A stretch of DNA of 19,489 bases from Promethearchaeota archaeon (GCA_016839765.1 JAEOTP010000093.1:1-19489); one strand, 5' to 3'; shown: positions 307-19,489, numbered from the stretch's first letter. Program-made: numbers and translations. Notes: a model not told the origin generated them from the letters alone.

Positions 307-2043
307 TTAATATTTATCTACAATTTCCTTTAACCCTAAAATAGGCACAATTATTTTATTAGGTCTAAAAAGCAATTCATAATCTAATTCATGTAATGTT
401 CGTTCTATTGTAAAATAATTAATTAATATAAAATGCAGATTAAGACTTTCATCAAATAGTTTTGCCATTAATCGATTTTCCCAACTATTAAGCAATTTCA
501 TAATCATTTCAAGAATTTTATGGGTTTGAGTTATTTTAGATGTTTTTCTAAAATAAAGGCTAAATAAAAATTCCTCCGGAACCTCAAATTTCTTAGGATC
601 TACAATTTTTTCTTCAATCAAATGAAGTAGCGTGTTAAATTTAATATAACTCAAAGATCTTAGAAATGAACCTAAATCCTTCTCTATTGGAAACTTGTTT
701 TTTTTCTCTTCAGGAGTCAATTGGGGATCACCTTCAAAATCGATGAAGTAAAATTGATATTGTCCATTAGTTTTGTTATAAAGTATTTGTTGCATATGCA
801 AATCTTGATGAACTGGTTGGATTACTATCTGTGGTACTTGAAATTCTGCTCTAAATTTTTCAATGATATCCTTAATATCAATTAATATTGAGCTTATTTT
901 AGGGGATTTAAAGAAAGAACTCTCAGATCTTTTCTTCATTTTAGATTCAATTGTTGTTATCATTGAATTTAGCTTGTTAGTATAATTTCTGAGGTATTCT
1001 ACACTATCAACTATTTCTTTATCAAATTGTATTTGATCCGATAAAATCATTGCTTTATGTAAGTACTTTATTTGAATACCAATTTGCTCTGAAACTTTTA
1101 AAGATTCACTACAATTTTCCTTTATTAGTTCAACCCTCTTTTGTTTATCATCAAGATAAGAATAATCCGCATCTAGGTCTTTATAGACACGATTGATCAT
1201 ATTATTAAGTTCATTCCAGTAAATATCTCCTACATTTCCAATATTGGGTACATTTTCGAGAATACCTATGGTATCTTTCTCATGGAATTTGAGAGTACCA
1301 TAAATTTTTGGAGCATTTGAAAATTTATTTTTAACCAAAACAAATAAAATTCTTGGTTCAAAACTTTCGAGGAACTCCTTGTAAGATTTTACTACATATG
1401 AAATTGGACTAGAATTAGGTATATTTAAATTTTTAATACTCAAAAGAAATAGTAAATTAGTGGTATTTCCTCCTCCTAACTGCTCTAATGAAAGTTCAAA
1501 TCTGTCAGGGTATAAACTTGCTTCTATGAGATTCTGAACTTGCTTCATATTAATTTCATCTTGAAATTGGTCAGTATATAATGTCAGATTTAAGGACATG
1601 GAGGGAAAAAATTCTGAAATCTCTTTTTCAAAAAATAATTTTTTCCAAAAAAACAAGCAGTATTCTGCTTCTATCAAATTAACTGGAAAAACATTACTTT
1701 GGCCCTCCTCTGGGATAGTCCTTATAAGCATTTTACTAAAGGTGTTTTCTGTCAATTTAACGATATTTTGCCTAGTATTCTCTATAGGATCAAGAATATC
1801 CGTAATCTTATGATAATATATTAAAGGTAAGAAGTAGGATTTGGTATACGTCTCTTTTTCTACGGTTATTACTATAATAAATATCCTATCTGAAATGAAT
1901 TCAAAATATTTAATGACTATTCGAAATTCTAAATTGGATAGTAATAATTTATCACCGAACCATCTTCTTGAAATAAGCCATGCTTTAAACTCATTGGAAT
2001 TAATAACTTGCTGGATTAAATTTTTATCAAAATCCGATGACAT
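307..2043 (-). CDS. Maltokinase/Pep2 (TreS C-terminal)-like sugar kinase, APH/ePK-like fold, divergent
   Basis: N-terminal 'AWLISRRWFGDK' matches the Mak cap (WL..RWF..K). Also VVK lysine, HQDLHMQQIL (canonical HGDLHLGQVL), FIDFEGDP (IDFEGEP), KDLGSFLRSLSY (RDVAGMLRSF.Y) and ERTLHELDYELLFRP..IIVPILGL (EKA.YEL.YE...RP.W..IP..G). The ORF track starts at TTG 2052; ATG 2043 is preferred. Confidence 0.8.
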   Translation of the reverse strand: MSSDFDKNLIQQVINSNEFKAWLISRRWFGDKLLLSNLEFRIVIKYFEFISDRIFIIVITVEKETYTKSYFLPLIYYHKITDILDPIENTRQNIVKLTENTFSKMLIRTIPEEGQSNVFPVNLIEAEYCLFFWKKLFFEKEISEFFPSMSLNLTLYTDQFQDEINMKQVQNLIEASLYPDRFELSLEQLGGGNTTNLLFLLSIKNLNIPNSSPISYVVKSYKEFLESFEPRILFVLVKNKFSNAPKIYGTLKFHEKDTIGILENVPNIGNVGDIYWNELNNMINRVYKDLDADYSYLDDKQKRVELIKENCSESLKVSEQIGIQIKYLHKAMILSDQIQFDKEIVDSVEYLRNYTNKLNSMITTIESKMKKRSESSFFKSPKISSILIDIKDIIEKFRAEFQVPQIVIQPVHQDLHMQQILYNKTNGQYQFYFIDFEGDPQLTPEEKKNKFPIEKDLGSFLRSLSYIKFNTLLHLIEEKIVDPKKFEVPEEFLFSLYFRKTSKITQTHKILEMIMKLLNSWENRLMAKLFDESLNLHFILINYFTIERTLHELDYELLFRPNKIIVPILGLKEIVDKY

Positions 2044-2233
2044 AAGGATCAACTGTTATGATCTAATATTTATTCAAAATACCCTATACAAATTATATTT
2101 AATGATTTTACTAGTCTAGCCCTAAATTATTAATTTAGAAATTTTATAAGCGAATTTACCTTAGAAAAATCATAAAGTTTACAAATATAGAAAACAAATA
2201 AGAAAATAAATTTATTAATGGTAGGATTAATAC

Positions 2234-2776
2234 ATGTCATCTAGAAAGATAAAAAAGGAAAAATATGGTAAGGAACGAGTAATCTATGAAATTAAAGAGA
2301 GCTTAGAACATAAGACAGTCTTAAGGCTTGAAGCACCTCTTCTTGGATTAATTGCCTTCAGTGTTGCGTTATGGGGTTCGAAAATATTCACGGCCATTTC
2401 ACCAGGGACGAGCTTAATTTTTCAAATCGGTGTATATAATATTCATCTCCACCACTTTCATTATGGTATCATCGCATTAGCAATCGGATTGGTACTCACA
2501 TTTTTTGAAGGAAAGTGGTTTGTAAGAATTGAACATATTCTATTTGGTGCGGGTTTAGGTTTTATTGTTGATGAATATTGGTTACTTTTAATATTCGATG
2601 ATACAACATATTTCGGTCCAGAATCGCAATTTATCTCCGCGATGATCGGACTCGTAATAAGTATCATTTATATAGTGATAATTATAGGAGTTTATTTTGC
2701 GACGAAGGAAGAGCGAAAAATTTGGCGAGAGTTATATGAAGCAGTTAAATCAGATAAAGTTAAAATAGATATATAA
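2234..2776 (+). CDS. Uncharacterised 4-TM membrane protein with HLHHFHYG and GAGLGFIVDE motifs
   Basis: Four hydrophobic segments; His-rich motif before TM2 and G-x-G-L-x(3)-DE in TM3, as in a widespread hypothetical membrane family. AGGA at 2223-2226 precedes the ATG. Confidence 0.8.
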   Translation: MSSRKIKKEKYGKERVIYEIKESLEHKTVLRLEAPLLGLIAFSVALWGSKIFTAISPGTSLIFQIGVYNIHLHHFHYGIIALAIGLVLTFFEGKWFVRIEHILFGAGLGFIVDEYWLLLIFDDTTYFGPESQFISAMIGLVISIIYIVIIIGVYFATKEERKIWRELYEAVKSDKVKIDI

Positions 2777-9492: not shown

Positions 9493-9687
9493 AAAAATAT
9501 GAGAAGTTTGATTTTTTTTCTTTTTTAAAAAGGAATCTTTTACATCTCAATGAATTTAAATAAAAGTTTTTTCATATATTTTAAAGAGATATAACATATT
9601 TTCTTCGTAATAATTTATCAAATTTACTTTTAAATTAAGCTGGTATAAAAAATAAAATGGTATAAAGAAGAGGTATTTAAATTAGAT

Positions 9688-11937
9688 TTGAAATATTCAA
9701 AAAGAATCTTTTTTCTTACTTTAATTCTTATTGGTTTTGTATTAGGATTTTTCTCTCAAATTAATTACTCGAAAGCTCAAGTTGAAGGAGAATCTTTAGC
9801 TTTTCCTGTTAATTTCACAATGGAAGAATTTACTGAAAGTTTTGATAGCTTGGATAATGTAACCTCATTTGAAATTCCTCTACCCTCAAGTTCTTGGAAC
9901 TTAACTAATTTACAACTAAATTTTTCAAATATTAACCTACAACGTGAAATAAAACCAATTGAGGATCAGCATCATGGAGATTATGGAAATATATATTATA
10001 CAACTCCTTCAAAGAGAACTCATGGACTTGGAGTTCAAATAAATTTAACTGAAACCACTAGAATATTTGGGGCATATATTTATGGATACAAAAGCCCTGA
10101 AACAACAGAAGTCATTCAAGTTCAAATACGAGGATATAATGATGCAGAAAACAAACCGAATGATACAATATATGCTTTTACTAATATCAACGTTTCCTTA
10201 ATTCCGGGATGGTATTTACAAACTTTTAATTCTTCAGTAAGACTTCCAAAGGGTAATTATTATTTAGTTTTATTTGGTATTGTTTCTGGAGGCACCGATT
10301 ATTATTGGGCTTATAATGAAGATGATCCGAAAGATCCAAACCTTTATACATCAAAATATACAAATATTTGGAATATTGGAGTTCAAAATGCTCCTTATCT
10401 ATATAAATTGATTCAAAAAGTAAATAAAAGTTACAATCCAGAAGAAATTAATATGACTGCCGAAATTAATGGGGGATCCTATGACATTTTAAATTCTACA
10501 AATCCTTACTCTGGAATTCTATCCATTAATGGATTGAATTGGAATATAAACGATACTAATTTACACGTACCTATAAAAAATGATTTAGATATTGAATTAA
10601 ATTTTACTATTGATTACAATATTAAGCTAAAAAATTATCTACCTTCTAATGCATCAGTTTTAATTGAAGCAGATAAGGACAATATCTGGACTCTACCTCC
10701 AAAAATTACTAAATATTTCTGGAATTATTCTATAAAATTTTATTATCCTTCTAATTGGAATGATTTAATGGTTTTTAGAGATGGTGTAAATATTTCCTCT
10801 TTAGTTTATATTGATCCACTTGAAAAATCACTTCTTATAACAAATGACATTATTATTAATGGAGCAGAATGGAATATTACTGCTACTTCTCCATTATTCA
10901 ATTTTGGGTTAGATATACGTCGTTATGAATATGAGCCTGGTCAAGAATTAAGATTTTTAATAGATGAACCACCAACACCAGGTACTTATACCTTAAAATT
11001 ATATGATCCTGTTCATTTACCAATTGATGATGCCCAACAAACTATATCGTTACCAGGAGAAACAAATCTATTTACCTATACGTTTGATACACACCCACTA
11101 GAAGGAGAATATCATGCATACGTTTACTTTTTCGATGGAACAAATGCAGGTGTAGAAACTGCTACATTTATTATAACTGTTCCTTTTACAATTGATCCCT
11201 TAACACTATTTCTTATTATTTTAGCATCAGTCATAGTTATATCAGTTACCATCTCTATTGTAGTTTCTGTGAAAAAGCATAAAAGGAAAATTGAAGCTTA
11301 TAAAGAAGAAATATTCAATAAATGCATGGATATTTTAAATCTAAACTATATTATGGTTTCTGAGAAGAAATCCTCATTAAATGTATATGAGCAAGTATTT
11401 ACCACACAGAAACTTGATCCCACACTTATTTCTGGATTTTTATCAGCCATACACTCTTTTGGAATTGAATTAACCAATACTGATGATAAAACGCAAACAA
11501 TTAAGCTGGAATATAAAAACTCAAAAGTTTTGATGTCAGAATTTAAAGATTTTAGAATAGTAATAATTATGAATGAATTGCCCTCACAAAATTTCTTCGA
11601 TTCAATAAGTAATTTAGCTTTTGATATAGAACTTTATTATAGTAGGTATCTTGAAAATTTTAGAGGAAACATAGACCCATTTAAAGGAATTGAAAATCTA
11701 CTTAAAAAGCATTTAAATATCTCATTTTTATATCCATTAAAAATAGTAAAATCTGGAAAAACTAAAATATCTCCAACTGAAAAAATAATAATTGGGCGGG
11801 CATTAGAATCAATGAAAAAAAATAATCAAAATTATTTCTATATTACACATATTATGGAAGTAAAAGCTTGTGATTCTAAGGATATCGAAGCTATTTTTAA
11901 TTTACTTGATAAAAATATCTTTCAACCAGTTATATAA
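9688..11937 (+). CDS. Single-pass surface glycoprotein with cytoplasmic longin-like + winged-helix-like domains (paralog 1)
   Basis: TTG start with GAGGT SD; signal peptide ending ~SKA|Q; about 17 N-x-S/T sequons in the ectodomain; TM at 11200-11271 followed by KKHKRK; longin pattern YIMVSE-LNVYEQ-DPTLISGFLSAIHSFGIEL-TIKLEY-KVLMSE-FRIVIIM-helix-helix (~11341-11715). Confidence 0.88.
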   Translation: MKYSKRIFFLTLILIGFVLGFFSQINYSKAQVEGESLAFPVNFTMEEFTESFDSLDNVTSFEIPLPSSSWNLTNLQLNFSNINLQREIKPIEDQHHGDYGNIYYTTPSKRTHGLGVQINLTETTRIFGAYIYGYKSPETTEVIQVQIRGYNDAENKPNDTIYAFTNINVSLIPGWYLQTFNSSVRLPKGNYYLVLFGIVSGGTDYYWAYNEDDPKDPNLYTSKYTNIWNIGVQNAPYLYKLIQKVNKSYNPEEINMTAEINGGSYDILNSTNPYSGILSINGLNWNINDTNLHVPIKNDLDIELNFTIDYNIKLKNYLPSNASVLIEADKDNIWTLPPKITKYFWNYSIKFYYPSNWNDLMVFRDGVNISSLVYIDPLEKSLLITNDIIINGAEWNITATSPLFNFGLDIRRYEYEPGQELRFLIDEPPTPGTYTLKLYDPVHLPIDDAQQTISLPGETNLFTYTFDTHPLEGEYHAYVYFFDGTNAGVETATFIITVPFTIDPLTLFLIILASVIVISVTISIVVSVKKHKRKIEAYKEEIFNKCMDILNLNYIMVSEKKSSLNVYEQVFTTQKLDPTLISGFLSAIHSFGIELTNTDDKTQTIKLEYKNSKVLMSEFKDFRIVIIMNELPSQNFFDSISNLAFDIELYYSRYLENFRGNIDPFKGIENLLKKHLNISFLYPLKIVKSGKTKISPTEKIIIGRALESMKKNNQNYFYITHIMEVKACDSKDIEAIFNLLDKNIFQPVI

Positions 11938-11943
11938 ATAACC

Positions 11944-11952
11944 TCTTTTTTT
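11944..11952 (+). terminator. T-tract terminator candidate after paralog 1
   Basis: TCTTTTTTT starting 7 nt after the stop codon. Confidence 0.45.
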
Positions 11953-11976
11953 AAACTTTCTATTACTCAGACTTCA

Positions 11977-12018
11977 GGAAAAAATGTTGCCTATGTCCTT
12001 AAGAAACTTAACAGCTAA
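11977..12018 (+). pseudogene. Relic of the 3' end of an Isf flavoprotein gene (GKNVAYVLKKLNS*)
   Basis: Aligns without gaps to 9431-9472 (GKNIAQVLKKLKS*): 32/42 nt, 10/13 aa, same stop codon, same position relative to the downstream paralog. Weaker similarity may extend back to ~11953. Confidence 0.85.
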
Positions 12019-12213
12019 TCTCCATTTTTATTTTTTCTTTTGAAATGGGATATTCTATACCTAATAGATTTAAATATAAGTTTTTTTATATATCTTTAAA
12101 GACAAATATGTCAAGGTATTTTACATAATATCAACTAATCATTTGTCATAAGGTTAAGGTTATTATTGGTATAAAAAATAAAATTCTAGGAAAAAGGGGT
12201 ATTTAAGTTAGAT

Positions 12214-14463
12214 TTGAAACGTTTAAAAAGAATCTTTTTTCTTAATTTAATTCTTATAGCTTTTGTATTAGGATTTTTCTCCCAAATTGATTACTCTAAA
12301 GCTCAAGTTGAGGGAGAATCTTTAACTTTTCCTGCTAATTTCACAATGGAAGAATTTACTGAAAATATTAACAGATTGGATAATACCACATCAATTGAGA
12401 TTCCTCTGCCCTCAAGGTCTTGGAATCTAACTGGTTTACAATTAAATTTCTCAAATATTAAACTACAAAGTGAAATAAAACCAATTGAGGATCAAGAACA
12501 TGGAGATTATGGACCTATTTATTATACAACTCATTCCCGGAAAGTTTATGGACTTGGAGTTCAACTAAATTTAACTGAAACTACTACAATATTTGGTGCG
12601 TATATTTATGGTTATAAAAGTCCCGAAACAACAGAACTTATCCAGTTTCAAATACGGGGATATAATGAGGCAGAAAACAAACCGAATGATACAATATATG
12701 CGTTTACTAACATCAACATTTCCTTAATTCCGGGATGGTATTTACAAAGTTTTAATTCTTCAGTAAAACTTCCAAAAGGTAATTATTATTTAGTTTTATT
12801 TAGTATTGTTTCTGGAGACACCAATTATTACTGGGCTTATAATGAAGTGGATCCGAAGAATCTGAACCTTTATACATCAAAATATACAAATAATTGGAAT
12901 AGTGGAGTTCAAAATGCTCCTTATCTATATAAATTGATTCAAAAAGTAAATAAAAGTTATAATCCGGAAGAAATTAATATGACTGCTGAGATTAATGGGA
13001 GGTCCTATGATATTTTAAATTCCACAAGCCCTTACTCTGGAATTCTATCAGTTAATGGATTGAATTGGAACGTCAACGATACCAATTTACATATACCTAT
13101 AAAAAATGATTTAGATATTGAATTAAATTTTACTCTTGATTACGATGTTAAGCTTAACAATTATCTATCTTCTAATGCTTCAGTTTTAATTGAAGCAGAA
13201 AAAGACAATATCTGGACTCTAACTCCAAAAATTACTAAATATTTCTGGAATTATTCTATAAAATTTTCTTATCCCTCTAATTGGAATGATTTAATGGTTT
13301 TTAGAGATGGTGTAAATATTTCCTCTTTAATTCATATTGATCCACTTGAAAAATCAATTCTTATATCAAATAATACTATTATTAATGGAGCAGAATGGAA
13401 TATTACTGCTACTTCTCCATTATTCAATTTTGGTTTAGATATACGTCTTTATGAATATGGGCCTGGTCAAGAATTAAGATTTTTAATAGATGAATCCCCA
13501 ACACCAGGTAATTATACTTTAATATTATATGATCCCGTTTATTTGCCAATTGACGATGCTCAACAAACTATATCATTACCAGCAGAAACAAATCTATTTT
13601 CCTACACGTTCGACACACACCCACTAGAAGGAGAATATCATGCATATGTTTACTTTTTCGATGGAACAAATGCAGGTTTAGAAACTGCTACATTTATTAT
13701 AACAGTTCCTTTTATAATTGATCCCATAACATTATTTCTTATTATTTTAGCATCAGTAGTAGGTATATCAGTTACCACCTCTATTGTAGTAGTTGTAAAA
13801 AAACATAAAAGAAAAGTTGAAGCTTATAAAGAAGAAATATTCAATAAATGCATGGATATTATAAATATAAACTACATTATGGTTTCTGAGAAGAAATCCT
13901 CATTAAATGTATATGAGCAAGTATTCACCACACAGAAACTTGATCCCACACTTATTTCTGGATTTTTATCAGCCATACACTCTTTTGGAATTGAATTAAC
14001 CAATACTGATGAGAAAACGCAAACAATTAAGCTGGAATATAAGAACTCAAAAGTCTTAATGTCAGAATTTAAAGACTTTAGAATAGTTATAATTATGAAT
14101 GAATTACCCTCACAAAAATTCTTAGATTCATTAAGTAATTTAGCTTTTAATTTAGAAACTCAATATAGTAGATATCTTGAAAATTTTAAAGGAAACATAG
14201 ACCCCTTTAAAGGAATTGAAAATCTACTTAAAAAGCATTTAAATATCTCATTTTTATATCCATTAAAAATAGTAAAAACTGGAAAAACAAAAGTATCTCC
14301 AACTGAAAAAATGATGATTGGGCGGGCATTAGAATCAATGAAAAAAAATAAGCAAAAGTATTTCTACATAACACATATTATGGAAGTAAAAGCTTGTGAT
14401 TCTAAGGATATCGAAGCTATTTTTAATTTACTTGATAAAAATATCTTTCAACCAGTTATATAA
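12214..14463 (+). CDS. Single-pass surface glycoprotein with cytoplasmic longin-like + winged-helix-like domains (paralog 2)
   Basis: TTG start with GGGGT SD; same length and architecture as paralog 1; TM ~13726-13797; longin-like region ~13867-14241. Confidence 0.88.
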   Translation: MKRLKRIFFLNLILIAFVLGFFSQIDYSKAQVEGESLTFPANFTMEEFTENINRLDNTTSIEIPLPSRSWNLTGLQLNFSNIKLQSEIKPIEDQEHGDYGPIYYTTHSRKVYGLGVQLNLTETTTIFGAYIYGYKSPETTELIQFQIRGYNEAENKPNDTIYAFTNINISLIPGWYLQSFNSSVKLPKGNYYLVLFSIVSGDTNYYWAYNEVDPKNLNLYTSKYTNNWNSGVQNAPYLYKLIQKVNKSYNPEEINMTAEINGRSYDILNSTSPYSGILSVNGLNWNVNDTNLHIPIKNDLDIELNFTLDYDVKLNNYLSSNASVLIEAEKDNIWTLTPKITKYFWNYSIKFSYPSNWNDLMVFRDGVNISSLIHIDPLEKSILISNNTIINGAEWNITATSPLFNFGLDIRLYEYGPGQELRFLIDESPTPGNYTLILYDPVYLPIDDAQQTISLPAETNLFSYTFDTHPLEGEYHAYVYFFDGTNAGLETATFIITVPFIIDPITLFLIILASVVGISVTTSIVVVVKKHKRKVEAYKEEIFNKCMDIININYIMVSEKKSSLNVYEQVFTTQKLDPTLISGFLSAIHSFGIELTNTDEKTQTIKLEYKNSKVLMSEFKDFRIVIIMNELPSQKFLDSLSNLAFNLETQYSRYLENFKGNIDPFKGIENLLKKHLNISFLYPLKIVKTGKTKVSPTEKMMIGRALESMKKNKQKYFYITHIMEVKACDSKDIEAIFNLLDKNIFQPVI

Positions 14464-14522
14464 ATATATTATTTTGAGATTTATTTCATTTTCAATTAAG
14501 AAAGTTATTTATTTTTAAAAAT

Positions 14523-14540
14523 CGAAATAGTGTTTATATA
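14523..14540 (+). promoter_or_regulatory. BRE/TATA promoter candidate for the sulfatase (CGAAATAG..TTTATATA)
   Basis: TTTATATA at 14533-14540 with a purine-rich BRE-like element upstream, about 33 nt before ATG 14573. No SD, consistent with a leaderless or short-leader mRNA. Confidence 0.5.
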
Positions 14541-14572
14541 CTTTCTAATTATTATCTTCTACTTATTATTTG

Positions 14573-16102
14573 ATGCCTATGAGTGAAAAAATGAATGTAT
14601 TATTTATAATAACTGATGCTCAACGTGCTGATCATATGGGATGTGCTGGAAATCCCATAGTAAAAACACCTAATCTCGATAGGTTGGCGAGTGAAGGAAT
14701 TCGATTTACGAATCACTTCTGTACTAATCCTATCTGTATGCCCAATAGAGCTACTTTAGCTACAGGTGTATATCCTAATGTTCATGGGGTTAGAAGTAAT
14801 GGTATAAATCTGCGACAAGATATTCCAACAGTATTTCAAACATTAAGGAAAAGAGGATGGTATACTGCAGCTATTGGTAAAATTCACCATCAATATTGGC
14901 TTGGACCATTCCGTCATAAGAGTAGATCTGCGGAAAGTTTAACTGATTGGGCTACAGCAAAAGATAAAACATATCCCATTAGAGATAATTTTCCTCTTCC
15001 TTATTATGGGTATAATGAAGTAGAATTAATTTCTGGTAACGGTACAGTTTGTTCAGGCCATTATCTTCAGTGGTTAGAAGAGAAATCACCAAAATACGCT
15101 GAAGAAATGAAAAAGAGGGTTCAAAATTATGATAATCTTTTTAGTCTTTTTTGTGATGGGATTCCTGAAGATTTATATAATACTACATATGTGAAAGAAC
15201 GTACTATAGCATTTTTAGAGAGATATGCAAATGGAGATTATGGCAATATACCCTTTTATTTACATTGCTCCTTTCCAGATCCGCATTATCCATTATACCC
15301 CCCCAAACGCTATCAAGATATGTATAAGCCTAATGATATTATACTTCCTCCAAGTTTTAACGATATCAAAAATTTATACAACCATAAATTCTTAGGATAT
15401 CATTTAAAGAACCCCCCCTTTAAAAAGGCATTCTTACGCGAATCTACAGAAGAGGAAATACGAAAAATTACCGCATTAACATATGCAGCAATATCATATG
15501 TAGATTATAGTGTAGGTCAAATTATTGCTGCCCTAGAGAAGTTAGGTTATTCAGATGATACGATTATTATTTTCATGAGCGATCATGGAGATTTAATGGG
15601 GGATCACGGTTTATTATTTAAAGGTCCTTGTCCATATAATGGAGTTTTACAACTTCCATTAATATGGAAAGTACCAGGAATAACAAAATCGGGGATTTCA
15701 AATTCTTTATTAAGCTCAATTGACTATCCAAAAACCATTTTAAATCTTTTAAATATTTCTGAAAAATATCAACCCCCAGATATGCAGGGTTGTGATATAT
15801 CACCAATCTTAAAGGATCCAAACATGAAAATAAGAGATTGTGTTTTTATTGAGAATGATGAGGAAGTAGGTCCTTTAAAATCCAGATTAAGACATCTAGT
15901 CACAGAAGAATACAAATTAACAATTTATGAAGGTTTAAGCAATTTTGGAGATATTTATGATCGAAGAAATGATCCCCACGAATTAAATAATTTATGGTAT
16001 AATACAACTTTCAGAGAAAAGAGGTTTGAGTTGGTGAGTAAGTTATTACAAGAAAATTTGACGGCTCAAACAAAATATCCGAAAAGAATAGCGGGAACAT
16101 AA
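14573..16102 (+). CDS. Cys-type formylglycine-dependent sulfatase (family S1, choline-sulfatase/arylsulfatase-like), cytoplasmic
   Basis: NVLFIITDAQRAD, KTPNLDRLA, signature CMPNRATLATG (CxPxR), GKIH, SFPDPHYP, SDHGDLMGDHGLLFKG and DPHELNNL; no signal peptide. Start is uncertain (TTG 14570, ATG 14573 or ATG 14579). Confidence 0.93.
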   Translation: MPMSEKMNVLFIITDAQRADHMGCAGNPIVKTPNLDRLASEGIRFTNHFCTNPICMPNRATLATGVYPNVHGVRSNGINLRQDIPTVFQTLRKRGWYTAAIGKIHHQYWLGPFRHKSRSAESLTDWATAKDKTYPIRDNFPLPYYGYNEVELISGNGTVCSGHYLQWLEEKSPKYAEEMKKRVQNYDNLFSLFCDGIPEDLYNTTYVKERTIAFLERYANGDYGNIPFYLHCSFPDPHYPLYPPKRYQDMYKPNDIILPPSFNDIKNLYNHKFLGYHLKNPPFKKAFLRESTEEEIRKITALTYAAISYVDYSVGQIIAALEKLGYSDDTIIIFMSDHGDLMGDHGLLFKGPCPYNGVLQLPLIWKVPGITKSGISNSLLSSIDYPKTILNLLNISEKYQPPDMQGCDISPILKDPNMKIRDCVFIENDEEVGPLKSRLRHLVTEEYKLTIYEGLSNFGDIYDRRNDPHELNNLWYNTTFREKRFELVSKLLQENLTAQTKYPKRIAGT

Positions 16103-16137
16103 GTTTAATCTTTATTGAATTTAATTTATTCAAATTG

Positions 16138-16152
16138 AATAAAGATTTATAT
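16138..16152 (+). promoter_or_regulatory. BRE/TATA candidate for the TauE/SafE gene (AATAAAGA-TTTATAT)
   Basis: TATA-like element at 16146-16152, about 24-30 nt upstream of ATG 16176, which is leaderless spacing. Confidence 0.4.
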
Positions 16153-16175
16153 TTCTGAAAATGGATTAATTAACA

Positions 16176-17099
16176 ATGAATTTAGAAGTATATGAAATTC
16201 TTATTTTAATAACTATTGGTGCTCTGGTTGGTATTGGTATGAGCTTTATGGGTCAAACAGGGCAAGGACTTGTTATGCCTATAATTCTCATGTTAACTGG
16301 AGATGCGTTTTTAGCGATTTCTGTAAACCTATTAAATGATCTAATAGCTGCAGTAGCAGTAAGCATGGGATATATTAGAAAAGGAGAGTACAAACTTCAG
16401 GTTAACACTTTAATTGTAATCATACTAGCACTTGTTTTTGCATGTATAGGTGTTTATATTTTAATGGTAACTCCATTGGAGAGTATATACGGATGGTTTA
16501 TTCCCGCTTTCATAATATGCTTAGGTTTAGTATTCATTAAAAGTGGATATGCATCTACAGAGCGATTAAAAACAATCCTTAGAAACATTTATAATAGATT
16601 TCTGAAGAGTAATGAAGAAGAAGCAACTCTCATTGATATAGATCGAAATAACAACGATGATGAGATTGCTAAGAATAATGAAATACAAGAAGTTATTCCT
16701 TATGGCTCAAAATTATTTTACATAATTGCTATTGTTTTTGGCTTTTTCTTGGGCATGAATTCTGGACTGTTTGGTGCTAATTCTGGAATGATTATTGTTT
16801 TAGCCCTTATAATCCTTTATGGCTATCCAATTAAAAAAAGTATTGGTACAGCTCTCATATTAAGCATTATTGTTAGCATGTTAACTTTTACGCTATATCA
16901 AATTTTTGGAATCTTAGTAAAAGGCACTTATTATTTCAATCTAGAAATCTCAGTTTTCCTAGCATGTGGTTCAATTATTACTGGATTGTTAGCTTCAACA
17001 TATATTCAACGCTTATCTGCTAAAACAATGGGAAGAGCAATGGGCATTGTGATGGTTATTTTAGGAACAATAGCTTTAACTTTTTATTTTATCACTTAA
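16176..17099 (+). CDS. TauE/SafE (TSUP) family sulfite/organosulfur exporter-like membrane protein
   Basis: About 8 TM helices in two related halves with Gly-rich motifs GALVGIGMSFMGQTGQGLVMP and GFFLGMNSGLFGANSGMIIV, plus IKKSIGTAL; adjacent to a sulfatase. Confidence 0.85.
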   Translation: MNLEVYEILILITIGALVGIGMSFMGQTGQGLVMPIILMLTGDAFLAISVNLLNDLIAAVAVSMGYIRKGEYKLQVNTLIVIILALVFACIGVYILMVTPLESIYGWFIPAFIICLGLVFIKSGYASTERLKTILRNIYNRFLKSNEEEATLIDIDRNNNDDEIAKNNEIQEVIPYGSKLFYIIAIVFGFFLGMNSGLFGANSGMIIVLALIILYGYPIKKSIGTALILSIIVSMLTFTLYQIFGILVKGTYYFNLEISVFLACGSIITGLLASTYIQRLSAKTMGRAMGIVMVILGTIALTFYFIT

Positions 17100-17232
17100 A
17101 ATAACTGGAAAATGTTAATTAAAAAAGTAAGAACCTCAAAATTTTTCATAAATATTTTTATATATTTATAAAAAATAAGACAAAAACTTTTTTATAATCA
17201 GAAGACGATTAGATTATCAAATAATAAATAAG

Positions 17233-19489
17233 ATGAATATGGGTCAAGGATTGCATAAAAAAGGAACAATAATTATATATTTGTTACTGTCGGTTTTATC
17301 TATTAGTTTAATTTATCAGAGTAGATTTATTAAGGCTCAAGGAAATGGCTTATCTTTAACTATTCAAAAAAGTTTTGAAATGACAGAATATTCTGTCTTA
17401 GAAGGATTAAATCAGAGTGTAGATTCAATAAGCTTTCAGTTACCTTCCTCCTCATGGACTATTGATGATATTCAACTAAATTTCAGTGATATAGAACACG
17501 GAATAGATCTAATAACAATTGAAGATAATCTGCATAATACATATAAAAGAGTCCATAATAAAAATCCCGCTCAATACATTTTTGGTCAAGCGGTTCAAAT
17601 AAAACTTGATTATCCTACAAATATATCTGGAGTTTATATTTTCGGTAAGGTAAATGGATCTCATCCCGGTATCCCTCAAATACAAATTAGAGGTTATGAT
17701 ACTACTAATAATAATCCAAATACTACAATCTATGGATCAACAAATTTAAACATCACTTCTACTCCAGGTTGGTATTTTCAGAATTTTTCTACTCCTATCT
17801 CATTAAATAAAGGAAATTATTATTTAGTTCTAAATGGGTCTTTACTGCCATTATATTCTACTGTACTAGGAGCAGGATTTTGGTGGGCATATAATGATTT
17901 TGACCCTTTAAATCCGCAATTAAAAACTTCGGAATATAATGAATCTGATCAATGGAGCATTGGAAGTTCTGGAGCTCCATTCTTATATAAACTCGTTCAA
18001 AAATTAAACCTCCCATTCTATCCAGAAAGTAATAATATGACTGTAAAAATTAATATTAACCATTACAATGTTATGAATGGTAGTTCTATGGGTGATGGTT
18101 ATTTAAATCAAACTAATTTAGATTACACACCTGGAACTAATAGTTTTACATTAAATGTATATAACAATAAATCTGAGAATCTAATTTTTAATGTGAGTTA
18201 TAAAATACATATTAGTAACATTATATTATCTACCGCTTCAGTTTCTATTAAAGGAAATATTAGTAATGATTGGACACTCACACCAACTATTTTAAGACAT
18301 TCTTATAATGATTTAGTTGAATTTAATTATCCTATGAGTTGGGAAAATTTAACTATTTATAGAGATGAGCAGGATATAACTTCAAATATAACAATAGATT
18401 CAATTAAAAGAATTATTATCATACCAAATATTATGATTATTCAAGGCGCAGAATGGGAGATAAAAGCTCACTCTCCTAACATTTTATTTGGTCTAAATAC
18501 GCCAAAAACAGAATTTAATTTAGGTCAGGAATTACGTTTTTCTTTGGAAGAACCTATAATTCCTGGTAATTACACATTTATTTTAATTGATTCTGCTGAC
18601 ACTGAGGAAACTAGAATTAAAAAAGTTATTCCAATTGATGATAATGTATTTTCTTATGAACTTCCCTTAACTTCTCCTGATGGAACATACATGGCATATG
18701 TATTTTGGAATAATGAAACTGATGCTGGTGCTCAATCACAAGAGTTTCTAATTTCTATTCCAAATTCGGGACAACCTCTAGATTTATCGATGCTAATAAC
18801 GATTGTTATTATCTTAGTAGTTGGTCTTGTTTCTGGTATTTCAATTTATATTGGAGTGAAACATATTATTAAAAAACGCAGATACGACATGGAGAGGCTT
18901 CTTAATAAATGCATTGATATTTTAAACTTAAATTATTTAATTGTTACTGATAATAAATCTGGATTAGATGTATATACTGAGTCTTATGGAGATAAAAAAT
19001 TAGATTCCACCTTAATATCTGGGTTTTTACAAGCTGTGCGAGAATTTGGTTCACATGTTGCTGAAAAAGATACAAGAATAGTTAAACTAGATTATAAGGA
19101 CACTATTATCTTAATGAAAGAATTTGTTAATATCAGATTAATTTTAAATATGAAAGACACTCCCTCGGAAGACTTTATTTATTCAGTCGAATCATTAGCT
19201 TACGAGATTTACAAAAGATATGGAGATCAGATTGAAAATTTTAGAGGCGGTCTTAAACAGTTCAGTGGTATAAAGGAATTAATCGATAAACATCTAAATG
19301 TATCGTTTCTATTGCCTTTCAAGGTTGTTGAGAATCCTATTATTAAACTATCTCCTTCAGAAAAAGCAATGGTAAATAAAGCCATACAATTTGTAAAAGA
19401 TCATAAATTTGATTACTTCTATTCATTATATTTATTACCTGCAAATGAATGTACTCCTAAGGATGCTGAAACTATATTAAATTTAATAG
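17233..19489 (+). CDS. Third, more divergent paralog of the membrane longin protein (752 codons visible, truncated about 9 codons before its expected end)
   Basis: My frame-1 translation is open from ATG 17233 to the window end: MNMGQGLHKKGTIIIYLLLSVL..IKAQ..LPSSSW..QLNFS..QIRGY..PGWYFQNF..KGNYYLVL..GQELRF..TM(18793-18858)..NKCIDILNLNY..LDSTLISGFLQAVREFG..KHLNVSFL..SPSEK..ECTPKDAETILNLI. Not in the ORF track. Confidence 0.92.
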   Translation, partial: MNMGQGLHKKGTIIIYLLLSVLSISLIYQSRFIKAQGNGLSLTIQKSFEMTEYSVLEGLNQSVDSISFQLPSSSWTIDDIQLNFSDIEHGIDLITIEDNLHNTYKRVHNKNPAQYIFGQAVQIKLDYPTNISGVYIFGKVNGSHPGIPQIQIRGYDTTNNNPNTTIYGSTNLNITSTPGWYFQNFSTPISLNKGNYYLVLNGSLLPLYSTVLGAGFWWAYNDFDPLNPQLKTSEYNESDQWSIGSSGAPFLYKLVQKLNLPFYPESNNMTVKININHYNVMNGSSMGDGYLNQTNLDYTPGTNSFTLNVYNNKSENLIFNVSYKIHISNIILSTASVSIKGNISNDWTLTPTILRHSYNDLVEFNYPMSWENLTIYRDEQDITSNITIDSIKRIIIIPNIMIIQGAEWEIKAHSPNILFGLNTPKTEFNLGQELRFSLEEPIIPGNYTFILIDSADTEETRIKKVIPIDDNVFSYELPLTSPDGTYMAYVFWNNETDAGAQSQEFLISIPNSGQPLDLSMLITIVIILVVGLVSGISIYIGVKHIIKKRRYDMERLLNKCIDILNLNYLIVTDNKSGLDVYTESYGDKKLDSTLISGFLQAVREFGSHVAEKDTRIVKLDYKDTIILMKEFVNIRLILNMKDTPSEDFIYSVESLAYEIYKRYGDQIENFRGGLKQFSGIKELIDKHLNVSFLLPFKVVENPIIKLSPSEKAMVNKAIQFVKDHKFDYFYSLYLLPANECTPKDAETILNLI

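Follow-up and report, generated by a model that had tools for sequence, protein, structure and literature searches.

What is encoded by three related genes for large membrane proteins on a contig of an Asgard archaeon, and what could the part of these proteins that faces the cytoplasm be for? We studied a stretch of 19,489 bp from a Promethearchaeota archaeon (GCA_016839765.1, JAEOTP010000093.1:1-19489), here called the window, which is the whole of contig C83 (GC content ~29%) in an Asgard genome of 3.3 Mb and 96% completeness; the genes in question lie between positions 9,688 and 19,489. The best explanation of our results is that the genes encode type-I surface glycoproteins that span the membrane once, in an Asgard archaeon of the Lokiarchaeia type, and that each has a predicted cytoplasmic longin domain. 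The docking of a small GTPase by the tail is a plausible candidate function, supported indirectly and by comparison. The genes, and the parts of the first product, are the following (open reading frame, ORF; amino acids, aa; transmembrane, TM; carbohydrate-binding module, CBM; immunoglobulin, Ig):

9688..11937, + strand: paralog 1, ORF of 749 aa with a TTG start; signal peptide, ectodomain, TM helix, predicted longin domain and winged-helix-like end
9940..10422, + strand: lectin/CBM-like jelly roll of paralog 1, residues ~85-245, from the ectodomain model and a VIA-wide search
10891..11187, + strand: membrane-proximal Ig/macroglobulin-like beta-sandwich, residues ~402-500, from the VIA-wide search
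11200..11289, + strand: TM helix (residues ~505-528) and stop-transfer patch KKHKRK (529-534) of paralog 1, from hydropathy and the model
11338..11727, + strand: predicted cytoplasmic longin domain of paralog 1, residues 551-680 (model residues 32-161), from the AlphaFold model and structure search
11728..11934, + strand: C-terminal β-α-α-α-β unit, putatively winged-helix-like, residues 681-749, from secondary structure and one structural match
12214..14463, + strand: paralog 2, ORF of 749 aa; tandem duplicate of paralog 1 with identical domain order
17233..19489, + strand: paralog 3, ORF of at least 752 aa, open at the 3' end; architecture as in paralogs 1 and 2

An earlier note on this DNA had described three paralogs of ~750 aa with a signal peptide, an ectodomain, one TM helix with a basic stop and a tail of ~220 aa, and both the ORFs and the hydropathy profiles confirmed that description. 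Its wording of an array of three holds for the three related genes, with the restrictions that sulfatase and TauE genes interrupt the array and that paralog 3 is truncated by the contig end, short of its expected stop by a few (roughly 5-10) residues. Each paralog begins with an N-terminal hydrophobic signal segment ending in SKA|Q or IKA|Q and contains one strong hydrophobic segment (residues ~505-528 in paralog 1, Kyte-Doolittle maximum 3.0), directly after which comes a basic patch, KKHKRK or KKRR across the paralogs. In the AlphaFold model a single unbroken helix (model residues 2-31) runs from the TM segment into the cytoplasm. The ectodomains have 18-19 N-x-S/T sequons each, against 6.6-8.7 expected from shuffled sequences (~4-5 standard deviations), whereas the tails have 1-2 each, about the expectation from composition. 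The ectodomains, which the earlier note had called glycosylated, are probably heavily N-glycosylated. Cysteine is absent from the ectodomain and occurs twice in the tail.

Relatives of the tail also bear on its location. Some short homologs of the tail family have a zinc ribbon on the C-terminal side of the tail, TM-less forms in the window's own genome present a Cys-rich N-terminus followed by the tail module (L005, L011), and the same genome has a longin of this subfamily directly fused with a P-loop GTPase in which GENGVGKT and NFQD motifs occur (L010/L022). Topology was judged from such sequence indicators, without a dedicated topology predictor. Because the positive-inside patch, the sequon contrast, the Cys-free ectodomain and the zinc-ribbon, soluble and GTPase-fused relatives all agree, the cytoplasmic location of the tail claimed in the earlier note, and the inside-out topology, are well supported. 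Two soluble copies of the module, L021:2438-3817 (G000:C25) and L026:6247-7139 (G000:C32), consist of a CxxC...CxxC N-terminus, a longin and a winged-helix-like unit. The GTPase fusion L022:114-2756 (G000:C95) is a protein of 880 aa with an N-terminal longin (IISGFLTGISHF), a P-loop GTPase-like domain and a long helical TPR-like region.

The fold of the tail was assessed on an AlphaFold model built from an alignment of 60 tails, which reached a predicted local distance difference test score (pLDDT) of 90.5 and a predicted template-modelling score (pTM) of 0.83. The predicted order is a helix, the series β-β-α-β-β-β-α-α, and a small β-α-α-α-β unit (model residues 162-230). DSSP assigned E33-40, E46-51, H59-75, E84-90, E93-100, E103-109, H115-137 and H144-157, so that the model contains a five-stranded antiparallel sheet with the element order of longins. 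A Foldseek search against the PDB gave only longin or roadblock structures as top matches: COPI zeta, AP2 sigma, the RagC C-terminal domain, sedlin, Tca17, Sec22b, SRX, Fuzzy and MglB. VIA-align, which is independent of Foldseek and searched 48,161 representative chains, gave Z 11.8 for synbindin, 11.7 for Sec22, 10.9 for AP2 mu, 10.7 for sedlin and 9.3 for a solved Lokiarchaeal longin (from a roadblock-longin protein). In a second VIA look Sec22b (1ifq_A) aligned with Z 12.9 over 123 of 127 aa at 2.9 Å, and the top 50 entries were all longins with Z 9.4 or more. Longin matches overall had Z 9-12.9 across 110-124 residues, i.e., entire solved domains, in agreement with the longin pattern that had been read from the sequence. 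Roadblock structures scored lower (Z 7-8.6) and their alignments ended at model residue ~135-147, without at least the last longin helix; for these reasons a longin rather than a roadblock fold is well supported for the modelled tail. PF03259 (Robl_LC7) matched 15 other genes of the genome and not the three paralogs.

Sequence databases were silent on this domain. Pfam at E values up to 1 gave no match to its longin families (Longin, Sybindin, Sedlin_N, Clat_adaptor_s, SRX, Fuz_longin and others) with the three paralogs or with tails taken from 60 homologs, NCBIfam and PDB sequence and profile searches gave nothing for paralogs or tails, and a protein-atlas feature search returned only unnamed Asgard clusters, with scores up to 0.87. 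A PDB profile match to the S1 region of RNase R (E 0.02) was discarded as a chance match of the LISGFLxAI helix, and matches to IQ_SEC7_PH (E 0.09) and TNFR_16_TM as noise or TM composition. The last 69 residues form the C-terminal unit (E165-167, H177-192, a bridge at 198, H200-206, H211-222 and E226-228 in model numbering), whose sole match within the tail-model search was a weak one, to the MetAP2 insert domain (Z 7.6, 64 aa); the unit is putatively winged-helix-like.

The earlier note had suggested a survey of Asgard genomes for the order signal peptide, ectodomain, TM helix and longin. The tail proved to lie almost always just after a TM helix, behind varied ectodomains. Full-length homologs of paralog 1 formed more than 214 clusters at the 90% identity level, from Promethearchaeota or other Asgard lineages wherever named, and the tail alone formed 628 clusters at the 50% level. 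In these it was positioned at the C-terminal end or within ~200 residues of it, preceded by N-terminal regions of up to ~1,460 aa, and a TM helix was found at most 45 aa upstream in 121 of 150 representatives, nearly all the others being fragments that start inside the tail. A profile search across the phylum detected the tail in 188 of the 201 genomes sampled, with several copies per genome, and in all 86 good-quality genomes of the sample; the window's own genome gave 11 profile matches. The full-length form with the jelly roll was limited to the taxonomic family of the window plus one genome of a sister family. The 220-aa tail, for its part, was retained at 26-78% identity behind unrelated ectodomains.

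Three multi-pass proteins (L028:2998-4134, L038:7834-8910 and L059:9456-11048), with 4-11 predicted TM segments, have a terminal longin without the winged-helix unit; the longin is therefore not confined to single-pass receptors. Two of these three adjoin GTPase genes. The soluble copy on contig C25 showed a weak MIT-like C-terminal match (E 0.0027), and similar helical repeats form the ends of P0241 and P0261, two long receptors; such ends hint at a possible link to ESCRT-III. No P-loop occurred in the C-terminal extensions of long homologs, and this set yielded no receptor-longin-GTPase fusion.

The ectodomain was modelled as all-beta with a pLDDT of 92.7. Its jelly roll (model residues 56-216) aligned best with a baseplate protein of phage phi812, a domain of the receptor-binding type (Z 15.8, 152 aa, 2.6 Å), and also with the lectin-like domain of Cwp84 (Z 13.2) and with several CBMs (Z 8-9), including a porphyran-binding module (Z 8.4); PHR domains also matched. 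The modelled jelly roll can be superimposed on CBM and lectin-like domains at the level of the fold, and DUF4082 matched weakly, in 2 of 60 homologs (E 0.006). The membrane-proximal domain aligned with macroglobulin (MG) domains of complement C5/C3 and alpha-2-macroglobulin (Z 10.2-11.5, 90-97 aa, 2.2-2.5 Å), and Foldseek matches of the ectodomain to Eph, complement and fibronectin mirror strings of beta-sandwiches only. As modelled, then, the ectodomain is a lectin/CBM-like jelly roll atop a stalk of Ig/MG-like domains. No characterised surface-layer (S-layer) protein matched it specifically in structure and sequence searches, and the match to such a protein that the note had named as a refutation was not found; the S-layer protein of H. 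volcanii (7ptp_A) was a generic Ig-like match at Foldseek rank 44 (Z 10.0 over 89 aa).

Gene neighbourhoods in related genomes associate the tail with one subfamily of Ras-like GTPases. In the window's own genome, a distant tail-bearing receptor of 723 aa on contig C28 lies 284 bp from a divergently transcribed gene for a 182-aa Ras-like GTPase (G000:C28:30194-30739). This GTPase was used as a probe across 200 genomes of the phylum; the test set comprised 20 loci holding the GTPases most closely related to it (at least 47% identity), and the control set 20 loci around Ras-like GTPases 42-47% identical to it. A tail-bearing gene was directly beside the GTPase at 8 of the 20 test loci and at none of the 20 controls (Fisher p 0.003, a nominal value that ignores kinship). 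The eight adjacent pairs were co-oriented with gaps of 15-214 bp, came from four genera and involved five or more different membrane partners: three GTPases then a 1605-aa receptor, two GTPases then a 782-aa receptor, one GTPase then a 768-aa receptor, a 1318-aa receptor then a GTPase, and a GTPase with multi-pass proteins of 358-378 aa that have a longin alone at the end. The 768- and 782-aa partners are members of the window's family (36-37% identity over the full length; profile E 1e-237 and 1e-218) and belong to another genus, and the GTPase beside the 782-aa receptor has the C28 GTPase as its best match in the window's genome. The locus with three GTPases (L029:270-2221, G030:C133) is operon-like, with three tandem Ras-family paralogs separated by a 15-bp gap from the 1605-aa tail-bearing receptor downstream.

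Conservation in 119 tails was highest at D548 (end of the juxtamembrane helix), in a K-x-S-G loop before β2, in the LISGFLxAIxxFG helix, at Arg623, in a P-S pair before helix 2 and at F/G/F positions around helices 2-3. The loop reads K(81%)-x-S(76%)-G(88%)-L(66%), the consensus residue after Gly being Leu, not Pro. Arg623 (model residue 104), the first residue of β5, is kept in 90% of the tails and would lie near the KxSG loop, given that β5 is beside β1 in the standard longin sheet order; it may form a structural salt bridge instead of being a catalytic arginine. The hallmark of longins of the GTPase-activating protein (GAP) type is a GP motif, which closes the loop preceding β2, together with a neighbouring arginine finger (PMC12290439). 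The tail resembles FLCN, NPRL2 and SMCR8 in that its longin precedes a small C-terminal domain and has a conserved Gly before β2 and a conserved Arg that would lie nearby, and GATOR1 chains gave weak two-domain structural matches to it. It differs from them in having K-x-S-G-L in place of the GP motif, and the paralogs are without any Pfam match; Arg623 is only a candidate equivalent of the catalytic arginines R164 of FLCN, R78 of NPRL2 and R147 of SMCR8. A search with Pfam NPR2 over the whole genome of the window gave nothing. The NPRL2-like longin proteins reported from Asgard archaea (Liu et al. preprint 10.1101/2020.10.19.343400; PMC12290439) are described as soluble or as two-component fusions and not as ectodomain-TM-longin proteins.

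Other known systems share the fold and differ in arrangement. Sec22b, TRAPPC4 (synbindin), sedlin and the N-terminal domains of AP mu/sigma (1ifq, 2zmv, 1h3q, 2xa7) aligned with Z 10.7-12.9 over 114-123 residues at ~3 Å, with 6-12% identity and no detectable sequence similarity. In those proteins the longin is soluble or precedes a C-terminal anchor, whereas the tail studied here follows a TM helix and a glycosylated ectodomain and has an extra winged-helix-like unit. The signal recognition particle (SRP) receptor (1nrj, 5ck3, 7obq; SRX Z 9.5-11.6) would be alike in pairing a longin held at the membrane with a small GTPase, but there the Arf-like GTPase SR-beta is anchored and the SR-alpha longin is soluble, whereas in our proteins the anchor belongs to the longin, and the candidate GTPase lacks a TM segment. 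Roadblock platforms, i.e., MglB-MglA, Ragulator-Rag and the Lokiarchaeal roadblock and roadblock-longin proteins (6hjm, 6ehr, 8yqg, 8yqk, 9jue), have a related fold and the logic of a dimeric GTPase platform; they are soluble, matched more weakly (Z 7-8.6), and their Robl_LC7 model does not match the paralogs.

Two further genes lie between paralogs 2 and 3:

14570..16102, + strand: sulfatase of the Cys type (CMPNR motif), without signal peptide; PF00884, E 1.3e-45
16176..17099, + strand: TauE/SafE-type anion exporter; PF01925, E 4.3e-25

The sulfatase also matched the arylsulfatase NCBIfam (E 1.1e-71), under the equivalog cut-off. Eight related loci were syntenic with the window, with a U32 peptidase, an Isf-like gene and 2-4 paralogs with variable genes between them. 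The context fits a link to sulfate-ester use, but all eight loci are close kin, and this synteny may be simply inherited. In six related loci the gene that closes the array (L012:1476-2072 and orthologs L013-L017) encodes a 4-TM protein of ~198 aa; the same gene would be expected just past the end of contig C83. This 198-aa neighbour was considered as a possible GTPase and ruled out, being a 4-TM protein. It has a central KKEKKK/GGGG linker, and its gene is convergent to that of the last receptor.

We tentatively favour, a little short of evenly balanced, the view that the tail, tethered to the membrane, serves a small GTPase of the Ras family as a platform for docking or regulation. In this scheme a lectin/CBM-like jelly roll on an Ig/MG-like stalk would stand outside the cell, probably heavily N-glycosylated, and the TM helix would run on as a rigid juxtamembrane helix of ~20 residues; binding or clustering of the ectodomain, probably on glycans, would set the location or the nucleotide state of the GTPase, the candidate partner in the own genome being the 182-aa protein G000:C28:30194-30739. 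The tail could be an effector site, a platform like a guanine-nucleotide exchange factor (GEF) or a GAP. Our results show the architecture, the topology indicators, the modelled longin fold, the spread of the tail through the phylum and, in relatives, its gene adjacency to one GTPase subfamily; contact with a GTPase, any activity as GEF, GAP or effector, the ligand and a signal across the membrane are inferred. Of the receptor and GTPase reading in the earlier note, the longin half agrees with the modelled structure, and the functional half is indirectly supported by the adjacency at 8 of 20 versus 0 of 20 loci and by the longin-GTPase fusion; signalling across the membrane without a kinase is a hypothesis. 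The broader proposal, that these are phylum-wide Asgard receptors, single-pass and some multi-pass, whose longin directly binds and regulates a dedicated Ras-family GTPase in a kinase-free, pre-eukaryotic system, with the lectin-tipped paralogs sensing glycans, is possible and on the doubtful side.

Several observations weigh against the platform function. No GTPase, roadblock or other longin gene is present elsewhere on contig C83, and all 71 Ras-family and 15 roadblock matches of the genome are off this contig. Near the other tail loci of the genome a GTPase occurs within 5 kb in 2 of 8 cases, directly adjacent in one, which is close to chance for 71 Ras-like genes in 3.3 Mb, and a Ras-like gene lies within 6 kb in one of the eight related arrays, in a non-adjacent position. 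The p value of 0.003 overstates the case, because the genomes are related and many control loci are copies of one syntenic locus, so that effectively ~5 arrangements are compared with ~6. The GP motif of GAP-type longins was not the consensus in the 119 tails. Longins also serve as SNARE regulators, adaptor cores and plain dimerisation modules, and a shared fold is not proof of function.

Longin and roadblock domains usually dimerise, and the proteins could instead be structural glycoproteins of a surface coat, or adhesins, whose tail only oligomerises or anchors them (in clusters, or through a tie to the cytoskeleton or to membrane shaping) with no small GTPase involved. The generic lectin and Ig-like ectodomain, the multi-copy family with 2-4 tandem copies per locus and the contig without a GTPase gene would fit such a role, as would the many unordered surface proteins of cultured Lokiarchaeia, which are without an ordered S-layer (PMC9834061). 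We find it rather unlikely: a 220-aa tail that 188 of 201 genomes retain, at 26-78% identity and following unrelated ectodomains, is more than anchoring requires, and the adjacency to one GTPase subfamily and the longin-GTPase fusion would be left unexplained. A sulfate-ester utilisation locus would give the proteins another purpose, as substrate-capture or sensor proteins whose head binds sulfated glycans or organosulfates and whose tail controls uptake, sulfatases or TauE export. It would account for the Cys-type sulfatase and TauE within the array, for the same sulfatase in 5, an MBL-type alkyl-sulfatase in 3 and TauE in 2 of the 8 related loci, and for the porphyran-binding module among the CBM matches (Z 8.4). 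These loci, however, come from one taxonomic family plus one sister-family genome, where shared ancestry can explain the synteny, and the sulfatase, without a signal peptide, would need import of its substrate, for which the window has no importer; we consider this role unlikely. It concerns the ligand and is compatible with the GTPase model.

Longin domains recruit coat or adaptor machinery in AP sigma/mu, COPI zeta and longin SNAREs, and a cargo or sorting receptor whose tail recruits coat, adaptor or ESCRT-type machinery for vesicles or protrusions would be in keeping with the presence of Sec22b, AP2 mu/sigma and COPI zeta among the top structural matches and with the helical repeats and weak MIT-like match (E 0.0027) at the ends of some tail-bearing homologs. 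That match is sub-threshold, however, and the three paralogs lack it, the surroundings of the array in the window and the related loci contain no coat or ESCRT genes, and internal vesicle traffic is not established for Lokiarchaeia (PMC10933270), which makes this function improbable. Least convincing is a membrane-tethered transcription regulator, with the winged helix binding DNA either while still membrane-bound or once proteolysis has released the tail. The last 69 residues do have a winged-helix-like order of elements, and protein-atlas clusters with TrmB and helix-turn-helix (HTH) families appeared at low scores (0.77), but these are under the meaningful level, Pfam gave no HTH match, conservation is highest in the longin part, and the putative recognition helix, which reads SKDIEAIFNLLDKN in paralog 1, has an acidic and hydrophobic character rather than a basic one. 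The acidic helix also led us to reject a ToxR-like DNA-binding reading, and regulation of transcription seems very improbable.

Eukaryotes use the longin fold to dock small GTPase switches, and in Asgard genomes there are small GTPases by the dozen and over a hundred gene families of the longin/roadblock type; we know of no regulators or stimuli of these Asgard GTPases. If the platform function is true, a longin module attached to the inner side of surface proteins would be a concrete answer to what regulates them, and the tail with the adjacent GTPase subfamily offers a cloneable pair for testing a pre-eukaryotic link from surface to GTPase. The module also points to probable constituents of the unordered coat that cultured Lokiarchaeia have on their surface. 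Published work has described expanded longin/roadblock families in Asgard archaea, longin-GTPase fusions, NPRL2-like longins joined to two-component domains, solved Loki roadblock and longin proteins, and Asgard longins fused to many signalling domains. Full-text searches found no description of the ectodomain-TM-longin architecture, which does not prove that none has been published, and large catalogues of Asgard longin fusions may list it uncommented; the novelty would be a domain of the longin GTPase-platform type fixed to single-pass surface receptors.

Upstream of the paralogs the contig contains an FMN-reductase/Isf-like gene and genes for a U32 peptidase, PCMT, a GH57 glucanotransferase and a TPR protein. 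An ORF of 581 aa at 307-2052 (- strand) had no Pfam match, and a membrane ORF of 180 aa at 2234-2776 (+ strand) matched only Ost5, below threshold (E 0.0036). The history of the first two paralogs can be read from the DNA between them:

11953..12213, + strand: duplication junction; 3' relic of the Isf-like FMN-reductase gene, then a second copy of the promoter-bearing spacer

Paralogs 1 and 2 are 87.7% identical, collinear and gap-free, and paralog 3 is ~40% identical to either. The relic at 11977-12018 corresponds to the last 13 codons of the Isf-like gene (translations GKNVAYVLKKLNS versus GKNIAQVLKKLKS, each ending in a stop), and the duplicated intergenic region 9511-9687 aligns locally with 12024-12213, which repeats the AT-rich promoter spacer together with its GGTATAAAAAATAAAAT box. 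These repeats indicate that a tandem duplication produced paralogs 1 and 2, carrying along the end of the Isf-like gene and the promoter spacer. The dN/dS ratio of 0.29 between the two paralogs indicates that purifying selection acts on both.

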